Source of the DNA: Candidatus Eiseniibacteriota bacterium
Lineage (GTDB): Bacteria > Eisenbacteria > RBG-16-71-46 > CAIMUX01
Length of the DNA stretch: 64,000 nucleotides
NCBI GenBank assembly: GCA_963833505.1
Contig: CAWHYG010000007.1
Span: forward strand, 195,964 to 259,963
Direction of reading: 5' to 3'
A program made the position numbers and the translations under genes. Positions within the stretch are counted from its first letter, which is position 1. Every line of letters starts with the position of its first letter. The notes under the pieces are model-generated. The model searched no databases. It had not been told where the DNA came from and worked only from the letters and a program-made list of their open reading frames with translations. Below are positions 1 to 55,227 of the stretch, in pieces.

Positions 1-1
1 C

Positions 2-334
2 GGGGCCTACGTCTATCGCGCCGTGGCCCGCGACGCTTCCGGGGTTCGGGAGCTCGAGCATGCCCAGGGCCGGTTCTGGGTCGAGACCATGGGGCCGGAG
101 TTCGCCCGCACATGGACCGACACCGAAGCCCTCACCGAGATCGCGAAGCGGAGCGGAGGCGCCGAGGCCGACCCGTCGGGGCTGGCCGGGCTGCTCGAAT
201 CCATCCCGAGGTCGATCCGCCGAATGGGCCGGATCAAGGAAATCGAAGTCTGGAATCACTGGCTCCTGTTCCTGTGCTTCGTATCCGCGCTGTCCGTGGA
301 GTGGTTCCTGCGCCGGCGCCGCGGGCTCGCTTGA
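2..334 (+). CDS. hypothetical protein, C-terminal fragment (gene starts upstream of window)
   Basis: Frame open from window edge to stop at 334 (same frame as ORF 23..334); C-terminal hydrophobic helix WNHWLLFLCFVSALSVEWFL then RRRR; no family recognised. Confidence 0.35.
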   Translation, partial: GAYVYRAVARDASGVRELEHAQGRFWVETMGPEFARTWTDTEALTEIAKRSGGAEADPSGLAGLLESIPRSIRRMGRIKEIEVWNHWLLFLCFVSALSVEWFLRRRRGLA

Positions 335-336
335 TG

Positions 337-980
337 CCCGTCGACGCCGGTTTCGTCTCGGGGACGGAGCCGTTCGTGCCAGCCCCACGCCCCGGCGCGC
401 CAAAGCCTCCGTGGACCGGGTCGTCGGCCCTGCTCCGTGCGGCTCCGCGCACTTGCGTGCGCTCCCGCCGTACTCCGGCACGGGCCTCCTTCATGGTCCA
501 CTCCGGCTTCGGCGCGCCAGGGCTCTGCTGTGGACCCTGAACGCGGGTCTTGGCTCGTGAACTGAGCCGTTCGTGCCAGCCCCACGCCCCGGCGCGCCAA
601 AGCCTCCGTGGACCGGGTCGTCGGCTCTGCTCCGTGCGGCTCCGCGCACTTGCGTGCGCTCCCGCCGTACTCCGGCACGGGCCTCCTTCATGGTCCACTC
701 CGGCTTCGGCGTGCCAGGGCTCCGCTGTGGACCCTGAACGCCGGTCTTGGTTCGTGAACTGAGCCGTTCGTGCCAGTCCCACGCCCCGGCGCGCCAAAGC
801 CTCCGTGGACCGGGTCGTCGGCCCTGCTCCGTGCGGCTCCGCGCACTTGCGTGCGCTCCCGCCGTACTCCGGCACGGGCCTCCTTCATGGTCCACTCCGG
901 CTTCGGCGCGCCAGGGCTCCGCTGTGGACCCTGAACGCCGGTCTTGGCTCGTGAACTGAGCCGTTCGTGCCAGTCCCGCG
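337..980. repeat. tandem repeat, 197-bp unit x ~3.2 copies, intergenic
   Basis: Motif gagccgttcgtgcc recurs at 367, 564, 761 and 958 (exact 197-bp period); copies nearly identical; unit not a multiple of 3 and contains palindromes (gcgcacttgcgtgcgc, ggcgcgcc). Confidence 0.85.
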
Positions 981-1079
981 CCGTGACTTCGTGATCTCCG
1001 CCGGGCACCGCGGTCCCGATCCTGCTAACCAGATCTTCCCGTCGAAGCGGCGACAACGCCCGCCGCCGAAGGGAGACCG

Positions 1080-2888
1080 ATGTCGACCACATCCCACACT
1101 GCTTTCGCCTTCTCGATCCGTGCCACCCCGGAAGCTCCGCGCGAAACGACGCCGACGTCCCGGACGAGCCGGTCGGACGGCGACGCCCACCGGTCCTGCT
1201 TCAACTGGCGGAGTCTTGTCTTCGCCGCGTGCCTGGCGGCCTGCTGTCTCTCGTTTGCGACGCCGGGAGCCGTCCCGGCCGCGCTCTCGATCAACGAGGT
1301 TTTCTACGATCCGGCCGGCACCGACGCGGGTTTCGAATGGGTCGAGCTGTACAACTCCGGGCCGTGGGCCGAGACGCTGGAAGGAGCCGCGATCGAATCG
1401 GGCGGCGAGTCCGCCTCCAATCCCTGGAAGCAGGTCTGGGCAGGTTCGGAAGGGGAGTGGGTCGATTCCCGAGGCTTCTTCTGGATCGGGGGATCCTACG
1501 CGGGCCGTTCTGCGGACTCGCCCGGGACGCTGGACCTGCGGAACGGATCCGGCGCCGTCCGGCTTCTTCGCGGCGGTCTCGAGTTGAATCGGGTCGGCTG
1601 GGGGAACCTCGAAGACGCGGATCTCTTCGAGGGAGAACCGGCGCGGACCGGGCCGGCAGGGCGAAGTCTCGCCCGCAAGGAGGACGGCCTCGACACCGGT
1701 GACAATCAGGCGGACTTCGAGATCGCCTTGCCGACTCCCGGCCGTTCGAACCATCCCCCGTGCGATCTGGCGGTGCGACTCCTTCGGAGCGGGCGCGGGC
1801 TGCCGATCCCGGAGGGCACGGAAGCGTTCCTGACCGGGGTCCTTCTGGAGAACCTCGGACGATCGGACCTGTCGCCGGCCCGGGTGAGCCTGACGGTGGA
1901 TGGAATCTCGGTGCTGCCTGATCCTGCGCGGACGCTTCCCGACATCGACTCGGGCAGCTCGGTGCTGATCCCGTGGACCGTTCCGCTCCGTTCGCAAGTC
2001 GGACTGGGCCAGTGGACCTGCCGTGCCCGACTGGACGGGGATACCGAGCCGACGGATGACGCTGACACGCTGCGCCTTTGGGTCGGCCCCTCTCCGGTGC
2101 GCTTGCTCAAGCTCGCGCCGCACCCGATCAGTGGCGCGACCGAGTGGCTGGCTCTTCAAGCCGCGGCCGATCCGGGCCGGGCGCCTGCTTCGTCGATCTC
2201 ACTTGAAGGCTGGTCTGTGAAAGATTTGAGCGGCAACAAGATCCGCATTGAATCGGCCGCCCCGGTTCCGCCGGATGGAATCCGGATCGTGGCCCGCGAC
2301 TCGACCGCGATGAAAGCGACGCCGGGCTTCGCGCCGGGGACGCTCCTGGCGTGGTCGGGAACCTGGCCGTCCCTCAATGACGCGGCCGGCCCGGGGGAAG
2401 CCGCCGACTCGGTCTTCCTGCTCGACCCTCACGGGGTCATTGCGGACTGGGCGGCCTACGGTTCGACCGGGCCGGGCGAAGTGTGGATCCGTCTTTCGGG
2501 CGCGGAGCACGGCCCCACCGGTTGGACCGTGGATCCAGCCGCGAGCGCACCCGGAGTCGCGGTCGAAGGCCCCAAGGTCGCCGATCCGGAAGGAGATCAC
2601 TGGGCTCCAGCCGCTCTGGCCCTGGGCCGGGACGCCGGGGGCGCCTGGTTTCGATTGGCCGCCCGGTTGTTTCCGGGCTCCTGGGAGGTTCGCGTCGTGA
2701 ACCTCGAGGGCCGGGAGGTCTGGAGGTTCCACGGCGCCACCGTAGATCGAGCGGACTGCTGGATCCGATGGGATGGGCAAAGCTCCGGTGGAACGAGCCC
2801 GGCCGGCCTTTACCTGGTCCAGGCCCGGATCCGTTCGCAGAGCGGAGCCGAGCAGGTCCTGCGGGCGCCGCTGGTGCTCGACCGATGA
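1080..2888 (+). CDS. lamin-tail-domain (LTD) secreted protein with C-terminal FlgD-Ig-like / T9SS-CTD-like beta-sandwich domain
   Basis: ORF 1080..2888; N-terminal hydrophobic signal-like segment LVFAACLAACCLSFATPGAV; LTD signature INEVFYDPAGTDAGFEWVELYNSG; C-terminal ~70 aa with V-x-L-x-GR-x-V ... WDG ... GLYLV pattern; start codon uncertain. Confidence 0.7.
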   Translation: MSTTSHTAFAFSIRATPEAPRETTPTSRTSRSDGDAHRSCFNWRSLVFAACLAACCLSFATPGAVPAALSINEVFYDPAGTDAGFEWVELYNSGPWAETLEGAAIESGGESASNPWKQVWAGSEGEWVDSRGFFWIGGSYAGRSADSPGTLDLRNGSGAVRLLRGGLELNRVGWGNLEDADLFEGEPARTGPAGRSLARKEDGLDTGDNQADFEIALPTPGRSNHPPCDLAVRLLRSGRGLPIPEGTEAFLTGVLLENLGRSDLSPARVSLTVDGISVLPDPARTLPDIDSGSSVLIPWTVPLRSQVGLGQWTCRARLDGDTEPTDDADTLRLWVGPSPVRLLKLAPHPISGATEWLALQAAADPGRAPASSISLEGWSVKDLSGNKIRIESAAPVPPDGIRIVARDSTAMKATPGFAPGTLLAWSGTWPSLNDAAGPGEAADSVFLLDPHGVIADWAAYGSTGPGEVWIRLSGAEHGPTGWTVDPAASAPGVAVEGPKVADPEGDHWAPAALALGRDAGGAWFRLAARLFPGSWEVRVVNLEGREVWRFHGATVDRADCWIRWDGQSSGGTSPAGLYLVQARIRSQSGAEQVLRAPLVLDR

Positions 2889-4924
2889 TGGCGCGCGCGT
2901 CTGCGGCCTCGAGGCCGGACTTCCTGAGGACGTGCCGATGGCGCCGCGCCGGAATCACGGTTCTTCTCGGCTGGATGCTGTTCGCGCCGCCGGCCCGGGC
3001 CGCGTTCGAGATCCGCCTGGGCGGGCCGATCGGGTCGCCGCTCGTCCCTCCGTTCCTGCCCGCGCCGTTCGAGTGGTTGGATGAGGTGCCGGCAAAGCTG
3101 TCGCCCGGGCTGGCCGTCGGGGCGCTGCACCTCGAGCCGTTCGGGCTTCCGGCCGTGACGTACGACGCCTGCGCCGTCGGCGGCTCGTTTCGCTCCTTCG
3201 CGCCGCATCTGCGCGTGGCGCGCCTCGCAGCAGCCGGCTACGCCGAAGACGAGGTGTCGGCGGGCCTCAAGAGCCGCTGCGGCCTGGCCGGAGAGGCCGA
3301 TCTGCTCGCGACCCAGGCCGGGCCGGGTCTTCAGACCCAATGGGGCATCCACCCGCACGCCGTGGCCACCGCCTCGGTCGGAGCAGCCCGCGGATGGAGG
3401 TTCTTCCGAGGTTCGCTCTGGATTCAGGACGCGCTTCGATCCGGCGGTTCCCGAAAGCTGGGACTGGCGCCCCGCCCGCAGGTTCGCCTCGAGATCCACG
3501 CCGGCTCCGGTTGGGTCCTGGCCCTGGGCAAGGACTGGGGCGTGTCGGGAGTTTCCGGCGGTCGTGCCCTGGCCGCCGTGCAATGGTCGCCCGGTTCGCT
3601 TCTCAAGGTCGGCGAGTGCTGGTCGGGGAGCGGCCCCGAGTGCCACTGGCTCGAGGCCGGCGCAGGCGCGCTGGAAGGCCTGCTGTGGAGCGCCTCAACG
3701 GAAAGCGGAGTTCCAGCGACGCCCGGGATCGCGCTCGCATGCTGCGTCCCGCGCGCCGGGAGGCCGGCCTCGAAGCCGAAGGACCGGTTCCTTTGGATGC
3801 GGCAGGCCTGTGATGGCGATCGGAGATCGGGCGTTCCTGGCGCGGCGGTCCGACTCGCGGATGAGCGCGCAGCGACCGGACCGGCGGACGGGAGGCCCGA
3901 ACCGCCGTCCTCGAAACCCGATTCGATGGCCGTGGATCAACCCCTGACCGAGCCAATGCCCTCGACCCCTGATTCGACGGCGGCGGACCAACCCGTGACC
4001 GACGCGGCGCTCGAAGACCTCGATGGCCCTCTTTTCCGGGACGGGCAGCTTCTGGATCAATGGGCGGAGGCCGACAGCTTCGGCGCCGAAACCGACTCCC
4101 TTTCCCCCGGCGATGGCGGAGCTTGCCGGGCTGCATCCTTGGGGCCTTCCACGGCGGCAAGGTCCCGGACTGCCTTGGGATCAGGCGTTCCGCGTCTTCG
4201 CGACGACCACGCCTGGTTTGGCCCGAACGGAGCCCGGCCCTGGCAATCGGATGACGCCCGGTTCGTGCGGCCGTTGGATCCGGGCGCCCTCAGCCTGCAG
4301 GTTGCGGCGCAAAACGGCCGGCCGCGCGACGCAGTGGGTCGGAGGCGGGCTCCTTCAGACTTCGCGGCTCGAGGCGGTCGCCGCCACCGGAGGTTGCCCG
4401 CTCTTCTTCGGGGTCGGTCTGTTGGCGCGAGCGCCGGCGGTGTTCCTGCAGACTCCCGGGGATTCGTCGGGTCGCGGCCTTCCCGCCGCTTCGAGGTCCG
4501 TGCGCGGCGGGACGCGAGCCGGCCGCGATCCCGATCCGTCTCTCTCGCCCGAAGCGACGGCTCAAGGCTTCTCGATCGGCCTGGCCGGGAGAATCGGCCG
4601 AGGCGTTCGTCTCCTGGCCTCGGAGGAACACGACGGCTCGCCGGTGGGATCGGAGAGTCATTGCATCGGCGTCCGCCGCGACGGGGCCGAATGGTCGGAG
4701 GGCGGTCTGTTGCGCTCGGCGCAACGCGGGCCGGGCGCGGCCGGCATCTGGGTCGCCCGGCGGCGGCCGGGGGAGGAGACGTCCCTGGAAATCGCGCGCC
4801 TGACGCCGTGCCTTGGTCAGGCCGGCGTTCGCTGGAGCCGGTTCCTGACCGGGGATCGCGGGCGCCGGCTCTGGTGGGACCTGGTCGTCCGGCAGGCTCT
4901 GCTTCCCTTGGATCGCTTGGATGA
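2885..4924 (+). CDS. hypothetical secreted protein (probably the 5' part of a longer frameshifted gene ending at 5693)
   Basis: ATG at 2885 overlaps the upstream stop (ATGA coupling); signal-peptide-like RRAGITVLLGWMLFAPPARA; codon third-position GC bias is clear up to ~4080, then the frame decays into Arg-rich translation; true 3' end uncertain. Confidence 0.4.
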   Translation: MMARASAASRPDFLRTCRWRRAGITVLLGWMLFAPPARAAFEIRLGGPIGSPLVPPFLPAPFEWLDEVPAKLSPGLAVGALHLEPFGLPAVTYDACAVGGSFRSFAPHLRVARLAAAGYAEDEVSAGLKSRCGLAGEADLLATQAGPGLQTQWGIHPHAVATASVGAARGWRFFRGSLWIQDALRSGGSRKLGLAPRPQVRLEIHAGSGWVLALGKDWGVSGVSGGRALAAVQWSPGSLLKVGECWSGSGPECHWLEAGAGALEGLLWSASTESGVPATPGIALACCVPRAGRPASKPKDRFLWMRQACDGDRRSGVPGAAVRLADERAATGPADGRPEPPSSKPDSMAVDQPLTEPMPSTPDSTAADQPVTDAALEDLDGPLFRDGQLLDQWAEADSFGAETDSLSPGDGGACRAASLGPSTAARSRTALGSGVPRLRDDHAWFGPNGARPWQSDDARFVRPLDPGALSLQVAAQNGRPRDAVGRRRAPSDFAARGGRRHRRLPALLRGRSVGASAGGVPADSRGFVGSRPSRRFEVRARRDASRPRSRSVSLARSDGSRLLDRPGRENRPRRSSPGLGGTRRLAGGIGESLHRRPPRRGRMVGGRSVALGATRAGRGRHLGRPAAAGGGDVPGNRAPDAVPWSGRRSLEPVPDRGSRAPALVGPGRPAGSASLGSLG

Positions 4925-5693
4925 CGGCGACCCGCCCGGCGCCCCCGCCAGGACGCTTTCGTATCGAGGGGCGGAGCTGGGCGCGTCCTCCGGGCGCCAG
5001 TCGGCCGGGGCTCAGGTTCTGTGGGAGCGGCGCGCGGCGTGTCTCGATCCGGCCTCCGGCGATCCGACTACGCCGCGGCTCCGCGAAGCCGAGGTCCGGC
5101 ACCTGCGGCTGTCCGGACAGGGATTCGTGACCGCGGGAATCGCCTGGACCTTCCGCGCCGACGCCCGGGACCGGACAGCCGTCACCGTGGGATTGCCGGA
5201 CGCGCCGTTTGAATCCGGGTTGTCCACCAGCACGAGCCGGATCCGAGCGCGCGCGACGCTCGAATCGACCGCCGGCGGCGGCCTTCTCGTCGGGCTCCCG
5301 TCCGGATATGGGCTCGAGCTGGGAGAAGAGGCGCTCCGGTCATCTTCCTCGGGAGGCTCCGATGCCGCCGTGCCTGCCCTCTGGGCCGGCGCCTGGCACA
5401 AATGCGCGATCCTGCGGCGGATCGACGGAGCGTTCGGTTTCGTCGTGATTCAACTTCCCGGATCGCGAAGCCTCTCGCTTTCCCCGTTCTGGATCGGAGG
5501 GAGCCGGTTCCCGGTTCGGGCCGGCGGATTCTGGAGCGCGGTCCGGGTGTCCGGGCGGCTCGGTCCCCTGGCCTGGTGGCTTCGCGGGTTTGTTCCCATC
5601 CGTCCGGAAGGAAGTCGTTCCACCGGGTCTGCCCGTCGGAATCCGGGAGGTGGATTCGAAGCCAGCGTGCATTTCGAAAGTGGAGCGGCCTGA
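4023..5693 (+). CDS. hypothetical protein, beta-rich/aromatic-rich C-terminal region (possible outer-membrane domain); probably the 3' part of the gene starting at 2885
   Basis: ORF 4023..5693; strong GC3 codon bias from ~4550 to the stop; overlaps the preceding ORF in another frame, so a frameshift or two overlapping genes; true start uncertain. Confidence 0.4.
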   Translation: MALFSGTGSFWINGRRPTASAPKPTPFPPAMAELAGLHPWGLPRRQGPGLPWDQAFRVFATTTPGLARTEPGPGNRMTPGSCGRWIRAPSACRLRRKTAGRATQWVGGGLLQTSRLEAVAATGGCPLFFGVGLLARAPAVFLQTPGDSSGRGLPAASRSVRGGTRAGRDPDPSLSPEATAQGFSIGLAGRIGRGVRLLASEEHDGSPVGSESHCIGVRRDGAEWSEGGLLRSAQRGPGAAGIWVARRRPGEETSLEIARLTPCLGQAGVRWSRFLTGDRGRRLWWDLVVRQALLPLDRLDDGDPPGAPARTLSYRGAELGASSGRQSAGAQVLWERRAACLDPASGDPTTPRLREAEVRHLRLSGQGFVTAGIAWTFRADARDRTAVTVGLPDAPFESGLSTSTSRIRARATLESTAGGGLLVGLPSGYGLELGEEALRSSSSGGSDAAVPALWAGAWHKCAILRRIDGAFGFVVIQLPGSRSLSLSPFWIGGSRFPVRAGGFWSAVRVSGRLGPLAWWLRGFVPIRPEGSRSTGSARRNPGGGFEASVHFESGAA

Positions 5694-6164
5694 GCCATGG
5701 CTTCACGGGTCGAACGGCCCGCCTGAGCCGTGGCTTCACGGGCCAAACGGCTTCAAACGCGGATGCCGGAATCGAGAAGGGGCCCGATCCGTGCGAACGG
5801 ATGGGCCCCGATTCTCTTTGTGCGGGCTTTCCGGGGCTTTGAGAGCCGCTTGTGGCGGCAGTCCAGGGGACCTCCGGGGATCGCCCGAATCCGAAGGTGC
5901 GTCCACCCCCGGTTCCGCGCTTCCCGAGCTGTGATGTCAAGAAGTCGGTGACGGGTCCCGGATTCTCTTGCGCCCCGCCGTTCCGAGCGCCGGCAGCGCT
6001 GCCGGCCCGGATCGATCGGTCCCATTCGACGATTCCGTTTTGGTCCGGAATCGCCGCCGGCCGCGACGCGGCGACAAGATGGGCGGGAAACTAGATGGGC
6101 CCCGGGCCCCTGTCAAGCGGCCTGTGAGCCAAAGCGCTTGTGCTCGATTCTCCCTGGATCGAGC

Positions 6165-7724
6165 ATGAGGGACATGGACCCGTCTTCTTTGCTCGACCGG
6201 ATCCACCTCGCGATGGTGGAGTCGGGAAGGACATGGCCGGCCGGCGAGCTGGCCCGGGAGTTTCTCCGGCTCACCGTGGATGGCCCTGCGCCCCAGGCCC
6301 TCATCCGCCGCATGTTGGCGGCTGATCGGCGCTTCGCCGAAGTCGCTCCCGGACAATGGGCCGCCCTTCGGAGGTCGAGCCTGCCTCTCGTGGATGGCGG
6401 CTATGTTCTCGCATGGGTCGAGATCGGGGAATCGCCATCTCCGGAGGGATGGCGGCTGCACCTTCGGCCCTACGAGCCGCGCAACCAGGGATCGGGGGGC
6501 GCTCCGGATTGCATCACGGTCACCTCAGGAGATCCCGATCATCTCGAGCGCGCTCGCCGGACCTGGGAAGGGCGCCGTCTGGCCACGTTCCAGTCCGGTC
6601 CGCTCGGCCGGTTCCTGCAATGGATGGAGCGTCGTTGGGGACTGGCGGAGTGGAGCTCGCCGCTGGTGGATCTGCAGGCCTGGGTCCGGGTGGCGTTGCT
6701 TCGAGAGGGGCTCGGTCCGGCGGAGACGCAAAAGGCGCTTCAGCTCTCCTCGTTGTCCGAGCGGTGGCGGCTGGGCCCGATGTCCGAACTGCCCCCCGGC
6801 GTGCCCCTGCCCGCGCTGTCCGCCGTGTTCGATCGGGTCTTGGAGCGATTCGGATCGTGGACGGAAGAGGCCATGGCCCGGGAGTGGGAGGAGGGCTTCG
6901 CTCCGCGACCCGTTCCTTGGGAACGATTCGCGTTTGATCCCGCGGAGGTCGAGGCGGTTCCCGATTCCCCGGGCATCTATCGTTTCTATGATGACCGGGA
7001 AACCCTGCTCTACGTCGGCAAAGCGGTGCGCCTTGCCCGGCGGGTCGGGTCGTACTTCCGGCCGCTGCCTCCGGAGTCGACCAAGAGGGAGCAACTCCTC
7101 CAGAAGATCCACCGGTTCGAGGTGGAGCCGCTGCCTTCGGAGCTGGAGGCGTTGGTTCGGGAGGCCGAGGCGATCCGACTGGCGCGGCCGCCGTGGAACG
7201 TGCAGGTCGAGATCCATCCGATCGAGCGGTTGTCTCCCGATTGGTGGTGGCCGCTGGTCTTCGTCGCGCCAGGAGAGGATCCCCTCAGGGTGTCCGCGTT
7301 CCTCGTGGCCGGGCCGGAACAGGCCTTCCTGATGCACCTGCCGAGGGAGGGACGAGCCGAGGAGCTGTGTGATCTCGCCGCCTGGCTGGATCAGCGGCTG
7401 GAAGACGGGGGAGATCCAGCGAGACGGGACGAGTCCTCCGACCGCAACGGGCCGCAGGCGGAACTCGTCCGCGACGGGGACATGGCGGATGCGGTCGATC
7501 GGTACACTCCGAAGGCGCTGGAGCCGCCGGAGGCCAGGCTAGTGCTGCGCTTCTATCTCCGGCAGCGGGATCTGTTGCACCGGGTCGAATCCGTGCACTT
7601 CACGAACGGCTTCGCGCTTCTCGAGGGTCTCCTGGCCCTGGCTCAGTCGGCGCCTCAGGGCTCTCCGATCGATCAGCGACCGTCGCGGCGTGGTCCGCTC
7701 GATTCTGCCGTCCGGAGTTCGTGA
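6165..7724 (+). CDS. GIY-YIG nuclease domain protein with large uncharacterised N- and C-terminal regions
   Basis: ORF 6138..7724; central motif PGIYRFYDDRETLLYVGKAVRLARRVGSYF ... EALVREAEAIRLARPPWNVQ matches the GIY-YIG (UvrC N-terminal-like) fold; start taken at the in-frame MRDMD. Confidence 0.6.
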   Translation: MRDMDPSSLLDRIHLAMVESGRTWPAGELAREFLRLTVDGPAPQALIRRMLAADRRFAEVAPGQWAALRRSSLPLVDGGYVLAWVEIGESPSPEGWRLHLRPYEPRNQGSGGAPDCITVTSGDPDHLERARRTWEGRRLATFQSGPLGRFLQWMERRWGLAEWSSPLVDLQAWVRVALLREGLGPAETQKALQLSSLSERWRLGPMSELPPGVPLPALSAVFDRVLERFGSWTEEAMAREWEEGFAPRPVPWERFAFDPAEVEAVPDSPGIYRFYDDRETLLYVGKAVRLARRVGSYFRPLPPESTKREQLLQKIHRFEVEPLPSELEALVREAEAIRLARPPWNVQVEIHPIERLSPDWWWPLVFVAPGEDPLRVSAFLVAGPEQAFLMHLPREGRAEELCDLAAWLDQRLEDGGDPARRDESSDRNGPQAELVRDGDMADAVDRYTPKALEPPEARLVLRFYLRQRDLLHRVESVHFTNGFALLEGLLALAQSAPQGSPIDQRPSRRGPLDSAVRSS

Positions 7725-10993: not shown

Positions 10994-12234
10994 CTTTCGA
11001 CTCCGATCCGAGTGATTGTCTTCAACTCGCGAGCCGCGATCCGGGCGGCCAGCATGTGGCCTTCGCGGTTCCAATGCGGGTTCCGCCGGAAGTAGAGCAG
11101 GCCGCCCCGGGCCGCCGCCGCTCGGAAGTCCGGCAGGGGATCGATGACATCGAGCCCGACGTCCCGGCAGAACTGGAGCAGCCGTTGGTTGGGATAATCC
11201 GGATCGAAGTCGCCCGGTTTCAGCCCATAGCGATCCACCACCTGCTTCCACTGGCGGGGATAGACCTGGATCTGCGAGGGAATCAGGAAGAGCACCGGAT
11301 GCGACCCCTCGCGGATCACCGCCTCCCTCCAGGCCTCCAGCAGCGCGAGGGTCAGCTTCCAGGCGGCCTCCTGCGGAGGGGACGGGTGGACGCTCAGAAT
11401 GCCGACCTGGCTCGAGTAGTAGATCATCGGGCTGGAGTAGATCAGGCCGCTCGCTTCCCAGCGACGGGTCAAGGCGGGAATGCGCGAGAGCCAGTCGAAC
11501 ACGCTGGCATAGAGGGCGCTCCTGGCGTCCAGGAAATCGTGCAGGGGAAACGGGGAATGCGTCAGCGAATCGGGCGGGCCGGCGGAATCGGCGGGAGCCA
11601 CCCGGGGCACAGGAACGCCCTTCAGATCCAGCTTGTCGCCGTTGAACACGAAATAGGGTTTGTACAACCCGTACCGCTTGTCCCGGATGTTGTCCTCGAA
11701 GTCGTTGTCAATGGTCAGGGCGAGCAGGACGACGTCCGGCCGGTACCTCCTTCCCTCGGTGGCGTAGAGCAGGAACTCCTGATCCGTGCCGTAGCCGCTG
11801 ACTCCGAGGTTGACGACCTCGGTGTGGTCCAGCTCCTGTTTCAGAAGATCGGCGAAGTTGAATCGGCGCTCGACGCCGTCTCCCATCATGAAGGAGTCGC
11901 CCAGGATCAGGATCCGCCGCTTGCCCGGCTGCCGCTCGTAGGGAATCTCGTCGTCCCGGAATCCGCGGGAATTCGTGGTGATGGTGTGCTCCACCTCCCA
12001 GGTGCGGTGCAGGATGGTAACGTTGGGCTTGAGGGTCCAGCCGAGGAGCTCGTTGTACTGCCCGAGGCGGCCGTCGGTCAGGAACTGGTCGCGCGTGATC
12101 GAGCCCGGATGCCGGTGGCTGCCGCGTTCATAGGGGAGAAAATGCCGCAGGAGCAGCTCACAGGCCATCAGCCCGATCAAGGTGCTGCCGGCCGCCAGAA
12201 GCAGGTTGCTCTGCCAGGGCTTGATCCGGGGCAC
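10990..12234 (-). CDS. SGNH/GDSL-family hydrolase (N-terminal membrane anchor)
   Basis: ORF 10990..12234, 414 aa; motifs ILILGDSFMMG and GVSGYGTDQE typical of SGNH hydrolases/acyl-esterases; N-terminal TM helix. Confidence 0.7.
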   Translation of the reverse strand: MPRIKPWQSNLLLAAGSTLIGLMACELLLRHFLPYERGSHRHPGSITRDQFLTDGRLGQYNELLGWTLKPNVTILHRTWEVEHTITTNSRGFRDDEIPYERQPGKRRILILGDSFMMGDGVERRFNFADLLKQELDHTEVVNLGVSGYGTDQEFLLYATEGRRYRPDVVLLALTIDNDFEDNIRDKRYGLYKPYFVFNGDKLDLKGVPVPRVAPADSAGPPDSLTHSPFPLHDFLDARSALYASVFDWLSRIPALTRRWEASGLIYSSPMIYYSSQVGILSVHPSPPQEAAWKLTLALLEAWREAVIREGSHPVLFLIPSQIQVYPRQWKQVVDRYGLKPGDFDPDYPNQRLLQFCRDVGLDVIDPLPDFRAAAARGGLLYFRRNPHWNREGHMLAARIAARELKTITRIGVER

Positions 12235-40808: not shown

Positions 40809-41315
<507 letters not shown>

Positions 41316-41320
41316 GCGGA

Positions 41321-41350
41321 CGCGGCGGGGCCTGCAAGGCCGCGCCGCCG
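41321..41350 (+). terminator. GC-rich hairpin downstream of accB (terminator-like)
   Basis: gcggcggggcc-tgcaa-ggccgcgccgc, ~8 nt after the accB stop; no clear U-tract. Confidence 0.35.
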
Positions 41351-41506
41351 GCGAGAAGTCAAGGGGGTCCTCTTCCCGGCGCGCTACGCCGGCGCTCCGA
41401 CGTTCCGATCGAACGGCGGCCCTTCTGCCGAGGCCGTGCGCCGGCGTTCCGATCGGCAGGCCGCTCTCTTGATGAGGCCGCGCCCCGGCAGGTGTCCGGC
41501 GAAAGG

Positions 41507-42727: not shown

Positions 42728-42810
42728 AGCGTTCCGGTCGCGACGCGACCGACGTTCCCACGACCCGGGCGGCGGATCGGTTCCGGGAAGGGGCAGAGCG
42801 CAGGAGGCGC

Positions 42811-47718: not shown

Positions 47719-50700
47719 TTGAAGCGACGATCCGGAATGATCCGGCGCCGAAGCTCCGGAGTCTGCGCCCTCTTCCTGCTCCTTCTGTTCGCGGCGGGGC
47801 CAACCGGTCCCCGGAGAACTGGAGCGGAGTCGGAGTTTGCCGTGCCCGGCGGCGCGGCCGCTCATCCGGCGGACGGGGCGGGAGCTCCCGCATCCGATCC
47901 GGGGCGGGGTGCGGATGAGACGCAGCCTGATTCCGCCAAGGTCGCGCCTCCGGACACCCTGCCCGCGCCTCGCGCCAGGCCGATTCCCCCGGTCTCGAAC
48001 TCCGCGGCTCGGCCGGATTCCGCGCGGTCGGTGGGTCCGGACACGCTGCCGGCGTCCCATCCCACGCCGGCTCCGCAGGCGGCCACGACCGCGGCTCGGC
48101 CGGATTCCGCGCGGTCGGTGGGTCCGGACACGCTGCCGGCGTCCTATCCCACGCCGGCTCCGCAGGCGGCCACGACCGCGGCTCGGCCGGATTCCGCGCG
48201 GTCGGCGCGTCCGGACACGCTGCCGCCTTCCAATCCGGCGCCGGCTCCGCAGGCGGCCACGGCCGCCGCTCGAGCCGATTCCTTCCGGGTGGCCCTGCCC
48301 GACACCCTGCCGATCCCAGCCCCGGTGGAGGAGATCACCTCCTCCGACACCAGCCGAGCCGGCCTACCTGTTGAGAATCCAGCGCAACCGGACACCTCCA
48401 AGGGCCGCGGGACCAAAGCGGCTCCGGTGGCGGCTGCGGGAGTCCTGGCTGCCGCGCTCGCCGCCGGCGATACGGCGGCCGTCCGCCAGGCGTTCGCGCA
48501 ATTTCCGTTCTGGGTTCCGCCCCCGGGACTGTGCCCGAGTCAACAGGCGTTTCTCTTTCGGGTCGTCTCCGAGGAGCGGTGGGCCGACGTCATCCGGACC
48601 GGAGGGTTTCTCAAGCCTGAGATCCAGATGCGTGAAGACAGCCTGACCGCGCGGCTCATCATCCCGGAGGCGCCTCGCCTGAGCCTTGCCGACCAGGTGA
48701 CCCAGCAGGCGTCACCCCACGCCGACGACGGCGCGATCGAGCTCACGCGGACGGTCCGGGACACGCCGGTGGAGCCTCCGGTTCGAATGACCCAGGCCGA
48801 ATACCTGTCGCGTCTGACCCAGACGCAGTTCCGGCAGTTCTGGAAGGAGACGGTGGATCAGAGCCTCCGGAACAACGCGACCCAGGAAAACGGCCGGAAA
48901 GGGCTGCTCCGATTCGATCTGCCCGTCCAGCTTCCCTCGCAGCTTCAGACCATCTTCGGGGCCGGCAATCCCGATCTGTCCTGGCGCGGAAGCGAGAAGA
49001 TGTCGTTCGGCGGCACTTCCATCTGGCATCCCAATCTGATTGCCAACGAAATCGCCGCCAAGGAGTCGAAGTTCCCCCAGCTCGAGATGAAGCAGGACCT
49101 GAACTTCTCCCTCACCGGCACGATCGGGGACAAGGTCTCGGTGGACCTCGATCAGGCGACCGACACGGCCACGCCGCTCGCGAACAAGATCAAGATCCGC
49201 TACAAGGGATACGACGACGAGGTCGTCCAGAAGATCGATCTCGGCAACACCAGCCTGAGCCTGCCGGGCACGCAGTACGCCACCTACAGCGGAAACGTCG
49301 AAGGCCTGTTCGGAATCAACGCCCTGTCGCGCCTGGGCCCGGTCGACGTCACGACCATCCTCTCGAAGCAGGAGGGGCAGAACGAGTCGAAGACGGTGAG
49401 CGCCGCGGCCGAAACGAAGACGATCCAGATCAACGACATGGACTACATCGCGGGGAAGTACTTCTTCCTGCGCACTCCGAACGGTTGTCCCTGGCAGCTC
49501 GACCAGAACTCGCTCAGCGTCTTCCTCGACGACAAGAACGGATCCAACGACGTGCAGCAGGGAGCGATTCCGGGGAAAGCGACCCTGGACGGCAACTCCG
49601 CCGACGGCGGCCACAGCTATCCGGGCATGTTCTACCGGCTCCAGCCGGGACCGCCTCCCGACGGCCAGTACGAGATCCAGAATGACGTCTACACCGGCCA
49701 GCCGGTGCTGATCCTGAATGACGCACTGAACGACCGGTACGCCCTCGCCGTGACCTACGCCGGCTGGTATCTCGACGCCAACCTCCACCCCGACCAGGGC
49801 AGCCCGATCCACGTCGGTCAGATCGCGGCGGACACGCTGCGGCTCGAGTTGCTCCGTCCTTCCGTCTCCGATCTCTCGACCAATCGGAGGCAGGGAACCT
49901 GGGGCCCGCTGGCCAACCTGGAGCTTCGCAACATGTACGATCTCCAGGCTCGAGGGATCCTGAAAGCCGGGTTCCAGCTTCACATCCGGTTGAAGAGCTC
50001 AAGCGGCGGAGTCGTCGAGCCCGACCGGATCGGGCAGACCACCTTCCTGCAGATGACGGCTCTCGACCTGTCCAAGCAGACCGACACCGGTTACTCGCCC
50101 GGCCGCGACGACCTGGTCGACGACCAGTTCATCAGCTATCAAAACGGGATTCTCCACTTCCCGGACCTTCGACCCTTCGATCCCGACTCGTCCGACCTGG
50201 GGTTGCCTCCGGTACGCTGCAACGGTTTCGCCTACGCCCGCTATGGTCCGGCCAGCCCGGCCGATCCGACCGATTGGGTGAACTCGACCCTCCGGACCTA
50301 TGACACCCAGACGGCCTACCGCCCCAGGGTGCTGCCGATGTCGCCCGACTCGGCCAGCCTGTTCCGGGCGCCCGCCATCTATGACAACGTGATCCGCCAG
50401 GACACCGACAGCCGCTACTACCTGGAGATCACCTACAGCAGTCCGGTCAGCAAGATCGATCTCGGCGCCGTCGGGATCCTGGCGGGCAGCGAAACGGTGA
50501 CGGCGGGGGCGAGGACCCTGGTGCGGGACCGCGACTATCGGATCGACTACGACGTCGGGGAGGTCGAGATCCTTCCGGCCGCCGGCATCACCGAGTCGGA
50601 CCAGATCCACGTGACCTACTCCTATCTGCCGTTCGCCGGCACGGGCGGACAGAAGACGCTGTTCGGCACCGCCGCCTCCTATGCGCCCGAGCAGGGCAAT

Positions 50701-53700
50701 CTGTCCTTGTCGACCGCCTGGCTCTTCCAGAGCCAGGGCGGCGTTTCCGGCATCGAAGGGAACCGGCCCCGCCTGGGCCAGGAGCCGTCCCGCACGCTGG
50801 TGGGAGAGGTGGCCGGAACGTACAAGACCGACTCCAGGCTGATCACGAAGCTCATCGACGACATTCCGGGAGTGGACACGCGCCTCCCGACCAAGATCGA
50901 CCTGGCGGTCGGAGCCGGCATCTCCGTGCCGAACCCGAACACGAAGAACGTCCTTTACATCGACGACTTCGATGGAGTGAAGGACGACACGCCGCTCAGC
51001 ATGAACCGGCTGTCCTGGCGATGGAGCTCCATCCCGGGATCGGACCTGACCGGCGCCGCCCTCCAGACGAAGGCGAATCGACATGGGGAGCTGTGGTGGT
51101 ACTCCCCGCGCAACATCGTGCATGAGAGGGATCTCCAGCCGACGCTGGACCAGCAGGAGGGCGAGAACAGCCACCAGGTCATGATGCTGCAGTTCTATCC
51201 GCACGTTCCGGACACGGACAGTCCCGACAGTTCCTGGGCCGGGCTCACCACGCCGATCTCGGTCACCGGCCAGGACTTCTCTCGCGCCCAGTTCCTCGAC
51301 ATCTGGGTCAACGACTTCATCCAGTGGCCCGACGTCCTGCACCGGCGCCGCGGCAAGCTGCACATCGACCTGGGCAAGGTGAGCGAAGACGCCATGTGGT
51401 ACAAGAACGACCCGTCCGCTCCGGCTGACCAGTGGAAGGTCGTGCTCCCGAATGGAAAGCTCGACACCGAGGACGCCAACCGGGACGGCAAGCTCGACCA
51501 GACGGAGGACGTTGGTCTGGACGGCATCAAGCACGGCGATCCGGGGGCCGATCCCAACGACGTCTATCAGTACGATGACAGCGCCCCGGAGTCCGACCAG
51601 AAGTACGCGCACGTCAACGGGACCGAGGGCAACCAGATTCTCGACACCGAGGACCTGGACGGCGACGGCCAGCTCGAGACCCAGAACTCCTACTTCGAAA
51701 TCACCGTGGATCTGGGGGACTCGACCCTGTGGCAGACCGACGTCTACCGCGACTATCCGGGCTACCGTGGCAAGCTCGATTCGTCCAACGGCTGGCGCCG
51801 GATCCGCATCCCCCTGCAGGTGGACACCCTGGTCCATCCGGTGTACGACTTCGCCGCCGGTCCTCCGGTCTGGGCCAAGATCTTTCACGCGCGCCTCTGG
51901 GTCTCCGGGCTCTCGGCTCCGACCCAGATCGAGCTGGGCGGCATCGACATCACCGGCAATCGGTGGTTCCAGAGCCAGATCGCCGACTTGAGGGGCCGCC
52001 TGCTGCCCGACAGCGCCCTGGCGCCGGGGGAGAGCTTCTTCATCGGGACGGTGAACAACAAGGACGACGCGTCCATCTATCAGTCGCCGGTGACGATCCA
52101 GAAGGACGCCAACAACATCCCCGAGCAGGAGCAGTCCATCACGCTGAACCTCACCGAGTTCCAGCCCGGGCACGCGGCCACCATCTACCGGACGTATCCG
52201 GACCGCCAGGACTACACCTTGTACAACGACATGCAGTACTACGTGAGCGGATACAACCAGGGGAGCTCCAATCTGGTCTGCGGGGTGCGGCTCTGCCGGG
52301 ACGCGGTCTCCGATTCGGCCAACTATTACGAGTATCAGATCCCGGTGAAGTCCGAATGGCAGCTCGTCGACATCAATCTGGCCGCCCTGAGCCGGCTGCA
52401 GCTTTTGCGTCCCGACACGGTCAGCGGCATGGTGGCGCAGGATCTCGGTAACGGCGTCCGCATGATCCGGCGGGGAGCGCCCTCGTTGAACAGCGTCCAG
52501 AGGATCAGCTTCGTCGTGTACAACACGGGGAGCTTCCCGGTGACCCAGGGGAGCGTCTGGATCGACGAGCTGCGTCTGACCGACGTCAAGAAGGACGTGG
52601 GGCTCGCGGCCCGCATGCACCTGGGGGCGGATCTCGGCGGCCTGGCCCGTCTGGACCTGAGCTACCAGCGCACGGGGGCCGACTTCCTCACGGTGGGAGC
52701 GGATCGCGGCAGCGGCACCACGACGACGACCTGGGGTTTCGCCGGGTCGAGCGACAACCTGTTCGGATTCGGCGACCGTCTGGGCCTGAACCTGCCGGTC
52801 CACGTGACCTACAACGACACGCGGGCCGTGCCGAAGTTCCGCCCGAACAGCGACCTCATCCTGGACACGCCCCGGACCGGCGACATCTCGGTGACCAACA
52901 GCGAGGAGTTTTCGTTCACCGCCCAGCGGAAGCAGTCCCCGGAGTGGTGGAGCCGGTATCTGCTCGAGCCCTTCTCCTTGAGCGGGCGCGTGAATCGGTC
53001 GCTCGATCTCGAGCCCACCAGCCAGGACACCTCGGTGACCCGGAGCGGCTCGGTGGCCTGGAACTTCTCTCTCGAGCAATGGGGGGACATCGGGCTGAGC
53101 CAGAAGATGAAACTCCGCCTGATCCCCACCATGCTGTCCGCCACGGTGACCGGCGCGACCACGCAGGACCGGCGCTATTACCGGAGCGACGTCAATTCGG
53201 ACTACGCGCCTCAGCCCAGCCAGGACCTGACCTCCGCTGGCCTCGCCTTGTCTGCGGCTGCCCGGCCCTTGACGCCGGTGACCTATCGCATCGACAGCAC
53301 GCGCGATCTCATGCTCCACGAGGGGGAGATGAAGCTGTTCGGCATGAACCTGGGGGAGGAGACGGCGCGCCACCACCAGCTCAGCGCTTCAACCGACATT
53401 CCAATCCTGAGACAGATCCTGTCCCCGAGGGTGTCCTGGTCGGGCAACTCCGGTCTGGCCGCCGCCATCCAGACCTCGGTGCTGCCGGGGGAACCCGCGC
53501 GGCAGCTCTCCTTCAACAACTCGCGAACGACGGACTGGGGGGGACGCCTCTCGCTGCCCGATCTGTTCCACGGCCTGACCACCTTCGGGCGCCGTCGCGC
53601 CGCCCAGGACACAACCGGCGGAAAGGGGTCGCGGGCCAATGGAGCTTCACCGCTCCCCGGGTCTCTGGCTCCGAACGCGCCCCCGCCCGCGCCTTCCGGA

Positions 53701-55227
53701 CGGTTTCCTTCGCCCGGCCGGTTGTCGAATCCAGAGCCGGGCGGCGCGCCGGACTCGAATCCTGGTTCTCGTTTCTCGAACCCGCCGTCGGGCGGCCCAT
53801 CGTTCTCGAACCCGATGCCTGGCGCGGACCAGAATCCGACCTCGAACCCGGCTACGAATCCGGAAACGAGCCCGGCCACGAACCCGACGACCAACCCGCC
53901 CACGAATCCGGCAACGAGCCCGGCTACCAACCCCGCGACGAACCTGGCAACAGGCCCGGCCACGAATCCGGCAACGAGCCCGGCCACGAACCCGACGACG
54001 AATCCCCCAACGAACCCAGCGCCCGCCACGAACCAGAGGTCACCGGTCTCGGGTCCGGATTTGCCGATCGCCCCGGAATCCCCACCGGTGCCTCCGGGGC
54101 TTCCGTATCAGCCGCCGGAGCCCGAGCCCGCCCAGCCCGGGGCGGAGGGCACCCCGCCAAGTGGCGGGACCGCCCAGCCGTCTCCCTCGGCGCAACCGGG
54201 AAATGAGGCCGCTCAGTCGCCCGCCGGCGCAACCCAGAACCCGGCGCCGGGAACGAAACCACCGCCGTCGCCTCACGCCGGGTCCCTGGCCCGCCAGCTG
54301 GGCGTGAGCTTCATGTCCCTCGGCGCCATCGAGATCTCCTACGGTCTCAGCACCCAGACGAGCTACTCGAGCCAGAAAGGGGAGCCGAGTCTCTTCTACC
54401 AGCTTGCGTTCGTGAACAGTCCGGGGCCGGGCGCTCAGGCGCTGAGTCGCGCCACCGCCACCGAGACCAACTCGCAAACCCTCGACCTGAGCACCAACCT
54501 CAAGCTTCCCCGGGCGATCAATGTTGCGCCGCGGTACTCCCGTTCGACCGGTCAAACGGCCACGAACGGACTCACGACGATGACCAACGACCTCAAGTGG
54601 CCCGATCTCGACATCAGCTGGGGCAATCTGTACCAGGCGATCGGATTGGGCAGATGGTTCCAGGGCTTCCAGGCGAACACCCACTACAGCAAGGAGAGGC
54701 GGATCCAGGGTTCGACCGACTACCCGGAGACGAACCTGACCTCGGGCTATTCTCCGCTGCTCAACGTCAACGCCACGTTCAAATCGGGCGTGACCGCCAC
54801 CCTGAATTCCAGCTACACCTCCACCTCCGACCTGCTTACGGGCGCGGGCGAGGCCGGCGGGTACGAAACCGAAAACGACACGGACCACCTGCAATGGACG
54901 ATCACCTTCAAAAAGACCTTGAACCTGACGAAGAAGATCGCCGTGCCGATGACCAAGGAAGTCAAGACGGTGCAGACGAGGGTCGATCTCAACGCGAGCC
55001 TCGACTACATCGCCGACAAGCGGGAAACCCGAGCCTCCGGCCAGCCTCCGGTGGTGACCGACAACCGCGCGAGCGTCAAGTTCGAAGCCGGCCTGGGCTA
55101 TCAGTTCACCCAACGGATCAACGGAACCGGGTCGCTCAACTTCGGCAAGGACGTCGACAAGAAGAACGACGCCAATTCCGTGAATCAGCTCGGACTCGTC
55201 TTCACCGTCACCTTCTCGCTGGACTGA
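47719..55227 (+). CDS. sprA: giant outer-membrane protein, SprA-like (candidate type IX secretion translocon), 2502 aa
   Basis: ORF 47719..55227 with no internal stop; signal peptide; beta-rich throughout, ending in a beta-barrel-like C-terminus (...QLGLVFTVTFSLD); calcium-binding-like DxDxDG repeats; size matches SprA (~2400 aa); family assignment is from memory, not a search. Confidence 0.6.
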   Translation: MKRRSGMIRRRSSGVCALFLLLLFAAGPTGPRRTGAESEFAVPGGAAAHPADGAGAPASDPGRGADETQPDSAKVAPPDTLPAPRARPIPPVSNSAARPDSARSVGPDTLPASHPTPAPQAATTAARPDSARSVGPDTLPASYPTPAPQAATTAARPDSARSARPDTLPPSNPAPAPQAATAAARADSFRVALPDTLPIPAPVEEITSSDTSRAGLPVENPAQPDTSKGRGTKAAPVAAAGVLAAALAAGDTAAVRQAFAQFPFWVPPPGLCPSQQAFLFRVVSEERWADVIRTGGFLKPEIQMREDSLTARLIIPEAPRLSLADQVTQQASPHADDGAIELTRTVRDTPVEPPVRMTQAEYLSRLTQTQFRQFWKETVDQSLRNNATQENGRKGLLRFDLPVQLPSQLQTIFGAGNPDLSWRGSEKMSFGGTSIWHPNLIANEIAAKESKFPQLEMKQDLNFSLTGTIGDKVSVDLDQATDTATPLANKIKIRYKGYDDEVVQKIDLGNTSLSLPGTQYATYSGNVEGLFGINALSRLGPVDVTTILSKQEGQNESKTVSAAAETKTIQINDMDYIAGKYFFLRTPNGCPWQLDQNSLSVFLDDKNGSNDVQQGAIPGKATLDGNSADGGHSYPGMFYRLQPGPPPDGQYEIQNDVYTGQPVLILNDALNDRYALAVTYAGWYLDANLHPDQGSPIHVGQIAADTLRLELLRPSVSDLSTNRRQGTWGPLANLELRNMYDLQARGILKAGFQLHIRLKSSSGGVVEPDRIGQTTFLQMTALDLSKQTDTGYSPGRDDLVDDQFISYQNGILHFPDLRPFDPDSSDLGLPPVRCNGFAYARYGPASPADPTDWVNSTLRTYDTQTAYRPRVLPMSPDSASLFRAPAIYDNVIRQDTDSRYYLEITYSSPVSKIDLGAVGILAGSETVTAGARTLVRDRDYRIDYDVGEVEILPAAGITESDQIHVTYSYLPFAGTGGQKTLFGTAASYAPEQGNLSLSTAWLFQSQGGVSGIEGNRPRLGQEPSRTLVGEVAGTYKTDSRLITKLIDDIPGVDTRLPTKIDLAVGAGISVPNPNTKNVLYIDDFDGVKDDTPLSMNRLSWRWSSIPGSDLTGAALQTKANRHGELWWYSPRNIVHERDLQPTLDQQEGENSHQVMMLQFYPHVPDTDSPDSSWAGLTTPISVTGQDFSRAQFLDIWVNDFIQWPDVLHRRRGKLHIDLGKVSEDAMWYKNDPSAPADQWKVVLPNGKLDTEDANRDGKLDQTEDVGLDGIKHGDPGADPNDVYQYDDSAPESDQKYAHVNGTEGNQILDTEDLDGDGQLETQNSYFEITVDLGDSTLWQTDVYRDYPGYRGKLDSSNGWRRIRIPLQVDTLVHPVYDFAAGPPVWAKIFHARLWVSGLSAPTQIELGGIDITGNRWFQSQIADLRGRLLPDSALAPGESFFIGTVNNKDDASIYQSPVTIQKDANNIPEQEQSITLNLTEFQPGHAATIYRTYPDRQDYTLYNDMQYYVSGYNQGSSNLVCGVRLCRDAVSDSANYYEYQIPVKSEWQLVDINLAALSRLQLLRPDTVSGMVAQDLGNGVRMIRRGAPSLNSVQRISFVVYNTGSFPVTQGSVWIDELRLTDVKKDVGLAARMHLGADLGGLARLDLSYQRTGADFLTVGADRGSGTTTTTWGFAGSSDNLFGFGDRLGLNLPVHVTYNDTRAVPKFRPNSDLILDTPRTGDISVTNSEEFSFTAQRKQSPEWWSRYLLEPFSLSGRVNRSLDLEPTSQDTSVTRSGSVAWNFSLEQWGDIGLSQKMKLRLIPTMLSATVTGATTQDRRYYRSDVNSDYAPQPSQDLTSAGLALSAAARPLTPVTYRIDSTRDLMLHEGEMKLFGMNLGEETARHHQLSASTDIPILRQILSPRVSWSGNSGLAAAIQTSVLPGEPARQLSFNNSRTTDWGGRLSLPDLFHGLTTFGRRRAAQDTTGGKGSRANGASPLPGSLAPNAPPPAPSGRFPSPGRLSNPEPGGAPDSNPGSRFSNPPSGGPSFSNPMPGADQNPTSNPATNPETSPATNPTTNPPTNPATSPATNPATNLATGPATNPATSPATNPTTNPPTNPAPATNQRSPVSGPDLPIAPESPPVPPGLPYQPPEPEPAQPGAEGTPPSGGTAQPSPSAQPGNEAAQSPAGATQNPAPGTKPPPSPHAGSLARQLGVSFMSLGAIEISYGLSTQTSYSSQKGEPSLFYQLAFVNSPGPGAQALSRATATETNSQTLDLSTNLKLPRAINVAPRYSRSTGQTATNGLTTMTNDLKWPDLDISWGNLYQAIGLGRWFQGFQANTHYSKERRIQGSTDYPETNLTSGYSPLLNVNATFKSGVTATLNSSYTSTSDLLTGAGEAGGYETENDTDHLQWTITFKKTLNLTKKIAVPMTKEVKTVQTRVDLNASLDYIADKRETRASGQPPVVTDNRASVKFEAGLGYQFTQRINGTGSLNFGKDVDKKNDANSVNQLGLVFTVTFSLD
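48007..48267 (+). repeat. in-frame 87-bp tandem repeat x3 (29-aa unit ARPDSARSVGPDTLPASHPTPAPQAATTA) in the N-terminus of the SprA-like gene
   Basis: Three near-identical copies (1-2 nt differences) seen in both nucleotide and protein sequence. Confidence 0.85.
53640..54270 (+). repeat. low-complexity Pro/Thr/Asn/Ser-rich region with short tandem units (TNPA/ATNP) inside the SprA-like gene
   Basis: Translation ...NPATNPETSPATNPTTNPPTNPATSPATNPATNLATGPATNPATSPATNPTTNPPTNPAP...; ~66-bp units repeated at DNA level. Confidence 0.8.

Follow-up and report, generated by a model that had tools for sequence, protein, structure and literature searches.

An overlapping gene pair of Candidatus Eisenbacteria encoding a lamin tail domain protein and a predicted two-barrel outer-membrane protein, with parallels to type IX secretion

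In the Bacteroidota type IX secretion system (T9SS), both PorV and proteins of the PorP/SprF-like kind are FadL-family barrels of 14 strands and bind proteins bearing type A or type B C-terminal domains (CTDs), and PorP-like proteins hold their cargo on the cell surface (PMC9143113). A cognate sprF-like gene is found directly downstream of the substrate gene (PMC12618676), and in the known SprF/PorP systems the barrel is required for both secretion and anchoring of the cargo (PMC9143113, PMC12618676). The locus described here lies in a stretch of 64,000 nucleotides (nt) of a Candidatus Eiseniibacteriota bacterium (assembly GCA_963833505.1, contig CAWHYG010000007.1, positions 195,964 to 259,963; the window), in which a gene for a protein with lamin tail domains (LTDs; gene 1) overlaps a gene for a predicted two-barrel outer-membrane protein (gene 2). 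To our knowledge, cargo and shuttle gene pairs are known only in the Bacteroidota, and reviews often describe T9SS as confined to that phylum. The two genes are best explained as a conserved two-gene operon of Candidatus Eisenbacteria; with a probability of about 0.5, their products may be a T9SS-type cargo and its cognate outer-membrane receptor or anchor. The features of the pair are the following (aa, amino acids; ORF, open reading frame; HMM, hidden Markov model; Ig, immunoglobulin).

1080..2888, + strand: LTD protein gene (gene 1), 602 aa (ORF, third-position GC frame, Pfam LTD, homologue alignment).
1209..1280, + strand: hydrophobic core of the gene 1 signal peptide, with predicted cleavage between AVPA and AL after aa 67 (read from the sequence).
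1275..1604, + strand: lamin tail domain 1, aa 66-175 (PF00932).
2190..2462, + strand: probable second lamin tail domain, aa ~371-461, sub-threshold (PF00932).
2601..2885, + strand: ~95-aa FlgD-Ig-like or T9SS-CTD-like domain ending in P-L-V-[VL]-[GD]-R before the stop (weak profile and HMM matches).
2885..2888, + strand: ATGA stop/start overlap of genes 1 and 2 (sequence gaccgATGAtggcg).
2885..5693, + strand: predicted two-barrel outer-membrane protein gene (gene 2; GC frame switch, ORF of the independent contig L001, full-length homology).
2885..3001, + strand: gene 2 signal peptide, aa 1-39, with a putative cleavage site between A-R-A and A-F-E (read from the sequence).
3110..3748, + strand: N-terminal predicted 14-strand beta-barrel, PorV/FadL-like, aa ~76-288.
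3749..4219, + strand: proline- and acid-rich linker with a conserved ADS[LF]GA..DSL motif, predicted to be disordered (family alignment, low model confidence).
4220..5678, + strand: second predicted beta-barrel, C-terminal and of 24 strands, aa ~446-931 of the repaired product.
4300..4301, + strand: frameshift site, GG in the window and a single G in L001 (base-by-base comparison).

The pairing was followed through ten loci (the window, L002, L003/L004, L005, L006, L010, the contig of family member P0013, L011, L012 and L013). In all ten, the barrel gene directly follows an LTD gene with a product of 538-602 aa (only the 3' end of that gene on contigs that are cut short), and no family member was seen without it; the two genes overlap by 4 nt in nine of these loci, the remaining one (L002) having a gap of 24 nt. 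The barrel proteins are only ~25-40% identical to the window copy; the two genes have thus stayed together through considerable divergence, and the pair is not a chance juxtaposition. In the window, the overlap reads cgATGAtg, with the ATG of gene 2 at 2885-2887 and the TGA of gene 1 at 2886-2888. An earlier reading of this DNA from the sequence alone (the sequence-only reading) had described this ATGA overlap, and it is exact; the coupling of the LTD gene to its downstream neighbour that it proposed is borne out as a conserved overlapping pair.

The same reading had given the downstream gene a signal peptide, had followed it through a second frame to 5693, and had suggested resequencing of 4080-4550 to settle the discontinuity. 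The gene 2 product indeed starts with a signal-peptide-like sequence (LLGWMLFAPPARA, followed by AFEIR), and the motif AFE[IL]R...SPL[LVM]P..LP, which follows the hydrophobic segment, is conserved in the family. In the window as it stands, gene 2 consists of a 679-aa ORF (2885-4924) and a 480-aa piece (4251-5693), the latter, split C-terminal piece being encoded as a protein in the source record (P0012). The G+C content of this region is ~70% and long spurious ORFs are common; the real frames were picked by GC at the third codon position, which supports phase 2 across 1080-2888, phase 1 from 2885 to ~4200, and then phase 2 from ~4230 to ~5490. The switch from phase 1 to phase 2 falls at ~4200-4300, and the phase 2 frame reaches its stop at 5693. 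An independent Logan contig (L001, from ERR11594402, 4622 nt), found by exact-sequence look-up of the LTD protein, corresponds to window positions 944-5566 with 0 mismatches and 1 gap. The sole difference, at 4300/4301, is CTGCAGGTTGCGG in the window against CTGCAGTTGCGG in L001; the discontinuity was thus located to one base without resequencing. In L001, gene 2 reads as one ORF without interruption for at least 893 aa, beyond which the contig stops, and the repaired gene of the window (2885-4300 joined to 4302-5693) has 935 codons with a single stop at its end, so that what had been seen as two frames is one gene after removal of one inserted base. Homology to relatives of 800-1050 aa spans its full length, including the frame junction, and in all relatives gene 2 is an uninterrupted single ORF.

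The frame break comes down to the insertion of one base and is no true feature of the gene. It arose either as an error of assembly or by a mutation that is very recent and inactivating, an assembly indel being roughly twice as likely as a real mutation. If real, the insertion, which lies at roughly strand three of the second predicted barrel in the alignment with P0013, would inactivate the gene 2 product. It is unlikely that the break is biologically meaningful, whether it is taken for programmed frameshifting, for phase variation or for a genuine pseudogene of the strain, even though the window assembly keeps very long ORFs intact (for example, a 7.5-kb sprA ORF), so that it shows no obvious excess of indel errors, and even though the source record itself encodes the split piece. 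The ERR11594402 contig is intact and does not differ at any of the other 4622 positions, the gene is uninterrupted in every relative, and no slippery heptamer, homopolymer or repeat tract was found at CTGCAG(G)TTGCGG; on these grounds, programmed frameshifting and phase variation in particular were rejected as unlikely. Moreover, the source is a single contig of 2.45 Mb that spans a 197-bp tandem repeat upstream of gene 1, at which the short-read contig L001 breaks, and this suggests a long-read assembly; the pattern is typical of such assemblies, in which some indels are left over.

The family to which gene 2 belongs is rare. The repaired protein found one relative among 5.8 billion clusters, a search with that relative led to 11, and a further profile search gave no additional members beyond those 11. 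An exhaustive HMM search of 1.84 billion protein representatives gave 20 family members at E <= 0.001, most of them in the length range given above and the shorter ones fragments, one being the split piece of the window itself. The only member with a taxon name is from a Candidatus Eisenbacteria metagenome-assembled genome. One of the three loci from a profile scan of genome contigs (L009, Haliangiales) was discarded as a false positive, since it overlies a lon gene of the opposite strand. Pfam and NCBIfam scans assigned no family to the window pieces, to P0008, P0013 and P0015 or to 29 family members, in agreement with the earlier remark that the downstream gene has no recognisable family, and the family profile found no related entry among the PDB sequences, neither PorV nor FadL.

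Structural models were made for the homologues P0008 and P0013, which stand in for the window protein. The model of P0013, built on a diverse alignment of 29 sequences, has a mean predicted local distance difference test score (pLDDT) of 76.5, a predicted template modelling score (pTM) of 0.59 and 369 residues at or above a pLDDT of 90; that of P0008, built on 13 sequences, is weak (mean pLDDT 53.8). Common to both models is a layout of 14 strands, a disordered acidic segment, a three-helix module and 24 long strands, and the same two-block layout is seen in the other full-length members of the family that were aligned or modelled. In P0013, the 14 strands, of 9-12 residues, occupy aa 61-275, the three helices aa 382-428 and the 24 strands aa 454-930 (strand numbers are our counts from DSSP strings and not from barrel coordinates). 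Each of the two strand blocks has a pLDDT of ~90, and the ~180 residues between them are mostly disordered or helical. The repaired window protein, 29% identical to P0013 over 829 aligned positions, aligns across both barrels, and the structural matches of each block are closed barrels of the same size. On the basis of these models, the gene 2 product is predicted to be an outer-membrane protein with two separate beta-barrels; since even strand numbers put both ends of each barrel on the periplasmic side, the linker would be periplasmic. The region 2885-5693 had been left open to resolving into unrelated cytoplasmic proteins, and it is instead a single gene for a predicted outer-membrane beta-barrel protein. 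Its C-terminal part, described before as rich in beta structure and aromatic residues, is beta-rich and, more specifically, forms the second predicted barrel of 24 strands. The three-helix module is present in most relatives (among them P0008, P0013 and P0014), largely lacking in P0022, and absent from P0017 and the window copy.

The best structural match of the N-terminal barrel is the T9SS protein PorV (PDB 6H3I chain F), with 9-12% identity, no HMM match and a small margin over FadL, TodX and OmpG. The best structural matches of the C-terminal barrel are the 24-strand usher pores FimD and PapC. The likeness to PorV could be generic to 14-strand barrels, and gene 2 could then encode a general porin or envelope-biogenesis barrel of the phylum, in no specific partnership with the LTD protein. 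We regard this as quite unlikely, because a 4-nt overlap kept in nine of ten loci at such low identity argues for co-expression at fixed stoichiometry, and because the LTD gene stands upstream of every member examined.

The upstream partner has the appearance of an exported protein. A Shine-Dalgarno-like GGGAG precedes the ATG of gene 1, and homologues from five loci are 41-49% identical to its product in the alignment. The N-terminal hydrophobic segment is of the Sec type with an AxA site, as read from the sequence, and the homologues show ARA followed by ALVINE at the aligned cleavage position. The first LTD lies above the Pfam gathering threshold (PF00932, E 1.3e-11, 45.3 bits against a cutoff of 34.3), and the second is weak (E 0.0017, 19.1 bits, in a scan of the fragment 2100-2885). 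The region between them is putatively Ig/CARDB-like by our own reading. The terminal ~95 aa form a block that is conserved and reaches the stop codon in six of six homologues, and they carry the signature W-D-G...G...P-x-G-x-Y. A profile of the six homologues matched FlgD Ig-like structures among the PDB sequences (7eh9, E 0.0044; 7bhq, E 0.0077; 3osv, E 0.032; 3c12, E 0.071); Pfam FlgD_ig was matched below threshold by three of the six (best E 0.041) and CHU_C by one (E 0.062). A faint FlgD_ig match was also seen on the LTD partner of P0013. The terminal domain further matches the C-terminus of the NCBIfam PorU model (positions 1025-1085 of 1095, E 0.001), a segment that we take to be the CTD of PorU itself. 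TIGR04183 and PF18962 (Por_Secre_tail) were unmatched at E <= 10 by the window domain and five homologues, and no match of the terminal domain reaches a curated threshold.

From these comparisons, the terminal domain is a putative FlgD-type Ig-like beta-sandwich sited where a T9SS sorting domain would be, and its membership in the T9SS CTD families is not demonstrable from the sequence. Of the FlgD-Ig/T9SS-CTD-like domain proposed by the sequence-only reading, the conserved terminal domain has proved real; the T9SS sorting signal has not, as the matches, all sub-threshold, favour the FlgD-type Ig domain. With the FlgD Ig-like domain (PF13860) and the type A CTD (TIGR04183, PF18962) it shares the signature, and its structure matches are to FlgD. 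It differs from the FlgD domain in lying outside any flagellar context, and from the type A CTD in leaving the models unmatched; its likeness to T9SS CTDs is its place at the extreme C-terminus of a secreted protein. In overall layout, the LTD protein is like type A CTD cargo, in which an N-terminal Sec signal peptide is combined with an extreme C-terminal domain of ~80-100 aa.

A link to type IX secretion is provided by another gene of the window.

47719..55227, + strand: homologue of the SprA/Sov T9SS outer-membrane translocon, an ORF of 2502 aa (TIGR04189, Pfam SprA_N).

This ORF matches TIGR04189 (surface_SprA) with an E of 4.9e-142 (475 bits against a cutoff of 200) and Pfam SprA_N with an E of 2.9e-15; because it passes the TIGR04189 cutoff, the organism has at least the T9SS translocon. 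We infer the secretion route, the interaction of the two proteins and the surface anchoring as follows. The LTD protein, presumably all-beta with its two LTDs, its putatively Ig-like middle and its terminal FlgD-Ig-like sandwich, would cross the inner membrane by Sec, and then the outer one by way of SprA, the translocon that the same genome encodes. Its terminal domain would be captured by the PorV-like barrel of the co-translated partner, which would act as a dedicated shuttle or anchor keeping the LTD protein on the surface, in the manner of SprF with SprB, PorP with PG1035, or PorV with type A cargo. The second, usher-sized barrel could be a channel or a docking platform. A cargo with a cognate outer-membrane component was also the proposal of the sequence-only reading, with the cargo as an adhesin; the conserved pair, the match of the N-terminal barrel to PorV and the presence of SprA in the window speak for the cargo and its component, and do not extend to the adhesin role or to the interaction.

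The same data can be read as a self-contained export system, independent of SprA, in which the 24-strand barrel is the pore that threads the LTD protein, as in ushers or two-partner secretion, and the PorV-like barrel is the receptor of the terminal domain. The usher pores that head the matches of the second barrel pass Ig-like subunits, the cargo here is made of Ig-like and LTD beta-sandwich domains, and the tight coupling of the genes throughout the phylum fits a dedicated transporter. On the other hand, usher HMMs gave no match for gene 2, and neither a plug nor periplasmic N- and C-terminal domains were identified in its secondary-structure strings; unlike FimD and PapC, it has no chaperone gene among its neighbours (LTD, GIY-YIG), and the fold likeness may reflect barrel size only. 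We hold such a system to be very unlikely. Less likely again is a related version in which the 935-aa protein is a fused translocon and shuttle, with the 24-strand pore tethered to the PorV-like CTD receptor and the whole dedicated to one LTD protein; if true, it would be an unrecognised single-polypeptide secretion device, and it may show the origin of the partnership between SprA and PorV.

The surroundings of the cargo and receptor candidates are conserved as well, and the features nearest to the pair are the following.

2..334, + strand: 3' end of a conserved gene of ~735 aa, without a Pfam domain (tblastn of the L005 product).
344..982, no strand: tandem repeat with a 197-bp unit in 3.2 copies, intergenic between the ~735-aa gene and the LTD gene (TRF).
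6138..7724, + strand: downstream syntenic gene with a GIY-YIG nuclease domain, 528 aa, no signal peptide (Pfam).

The first of these was recognised by tblastn of the 735-aa product of L005, of which aa 626-735 are 58% identical to the window (E 1.6e-33). In L005 (2204-4411), L006 (3823-6033), L011 (962-3175), L012 (1276-3486) and L013 (1689-3887), it precedes the LTD gene, and its product might be a third component of the system. The window copy of this product ends in a hydrophobic segment and then RRRRGLA. A gene with tetratricopeptide repeats (TPR) sometimes sits between the ~735-aa gene and the LTD gene, and in relatives a PMT/TMTC-TPR gene similar to the TPR genes of the window (below) is found at this place.

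In the window, the interval is taken up by the 197-bp repeat, for which TRF gave 96% matches and a score of 1180 and a repeat finder gave three copies at a spacing of 197 bp, the copies being 92-96% identical. The repeat is confined to 344-982 within the window, and L001 ends inside it. Its unit is very G+C-rich with a strong predicted fold (-113 kcal/mol, a raw value without a shuffle baseline), and it may stand outside the LTD/barrel system. Rfam returned nothing credible in 1-6300, including the repeat, and a promoter and terminator scan gave nothing above shuffled expectation.

Downstream of the pair, the GIY-YIG protein matches the Pfam domain just above its cutoff (E 1.1e-4, 22.8 bits against 22.6, aa ~270-356), the remainder of the protein being unmatched, and its NCBIfam matches are limited to the N-terminal region of UvrC. 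In most relatives (L002, L006, the P0013 contig, L011 and L012), the barrel gene is followed by a homologue of this gene. This conserved neighbour allows a further reading, namely, capture and uptake of a substrate, Sus-like or of DNA, in which a polymer would be bound by the LTD protein, taken in through the large barrel, and handled by the helical module and the GIY-YIG protein. LTDs are found in extracellular nucleases such as ExeM (PMC6085458), and the helical module of the linker has weak matches to helix-hairpin-helix (HhH) and ComEA-like proteins: the full profile matches ComEA 8dss at E 0.051, further matches are to the HhH of NusA and Pol X (E 0.2-0.3), and a single member matches HHH_3 (E 0.038). 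However, all HhH matches are insignificant (E 0.04-1), and the assignment of the module as HhH/ComEA-like was set aside as a weak lead only; the window copy and several other members have no such module at all; the GIY-YIG protein, which lacks a signal peptide, is similar to cytoplasmic repair proteins of the UvrC/Cho type; and neither a TonB box nor a plug was detected in the barrel protein. We hold uptake, too, to be very unlikely.

In the wider neighbourhood of the pair, carbamate kinase and PMT_2/TPR genes are found. Three consecutive large TPR proteins are encoded at 8936-11251, 12335-14257 and 14257-16212, all on the - strand; the last two have a PMT_2 glycosyltransferase domain in addition, and the first scored on TPR families only. 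A second, small LTD gene (~210 aa, with a signal peptide) is located at 16433-17065 on the + strand; it emerged by tblastn, phmmer having found no paralogue of the LTD protein or of its terminal domain in the window. L006, L012 and the P0013 contig carry small LTD genes as well, a few kb downstream of the pair and with 55% identity to this one. In L006, the last residues of the homologue are TWGYVKALFARL; the small LTD protein is without the FlgD-Ig-like terminal domain. Elsewhere in the window, the ORFs for a T2SSE/PilB-type ATPase (40883-42727, + strand) and a biotin carboxylase (42022-44232, + strand) share ~700 nt in the ORF list; the latter probably starts further downstream in reality, as its Pfam domains begin at aa 264. 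An ORF of 826 aa (45042-47522, - strand) matches the LptF/LptG permease family twice, with the best stretch at aa 473-823, which suggests a fused LptF-LptG protein.

Taken as a cargo with its cognate receptor or anchor, the LTD/two-barrel pair is, by analogy, a reproduction of the gene-pair logic of T9SS with unrelated sequences. The protein family, the predicted two-barrel design of 14 and 24 strands and the LTD type of cargo appear to be new, although not categorically so, and a literature search gave no paper linking Eisenbacteria with type IX secretion. If the proposal is true, the logic of one cargo with one adjacent FadL-type barrel would reach beyond the Bacteroidota into an uncultured phylum of soil and sediment, the 14 + 24-strand design would join the short list of multibarrel outer-membrane proteins, and a defined protein pair would be available for the study of how CTD-like domains are recognised by barrels. 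Because the locus is fixed in every relative examined, the pair may be a core envelope feature of Eisenbacteria. In addition, the finding draws attention to a one-base frameshift by which gene 2 is split in the 2.45-Mb source contig as publicly deposited.

In comparison with described systems, the gene 2 product is like the multibarrel outer-membrane proteins (Solan et al. 2021, PMC8346858; GfcD/YjbH, PMC11494523) in having two predicted barrels and a periplasmic joining segment. The 2021 survey comprises 34 architectures, mostly of 8-strand barrels and none with a 24-strand barrel (PMC8346858); it describes neither a 14 + 24 combination nor an association with T9SS-type cargo. PorV, at ~390 aa, stands alone, serves many cargos and is not encoded beside a particular one, whereas gene 2 adjoins the gene of its putative cargo; and against the ~300-400 aa of single-barrel shuttles, its product has 935 aa and a second barrel. 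Gene 2 also differs from PorP/SprF in giving no match to PF11751, TIGR03519 or the PorV models, in the fusion of its barrel to another of 24 strands, and in belonging to an organism outside the Bacteroidota. Unlike that of the SprB-SprF and PG1035-PorP pairs, the terminal domain on the cargo side has ~95 aa and is FlgD-Ig-like, so that in size, and presumably in fold, it is nearer to the type A than to the type B CTD (150-235 aa). Nevertheless, it is to these two Bacteroidota pairs that the locus is alike in plan: the gene of a probably Sec-exported cargo lies directly upstream of a gene for a predicted 14-strand FadL-type barrel, the cargo ends in a domain of the sorting or anchoring type, and the genome encodes SprA.

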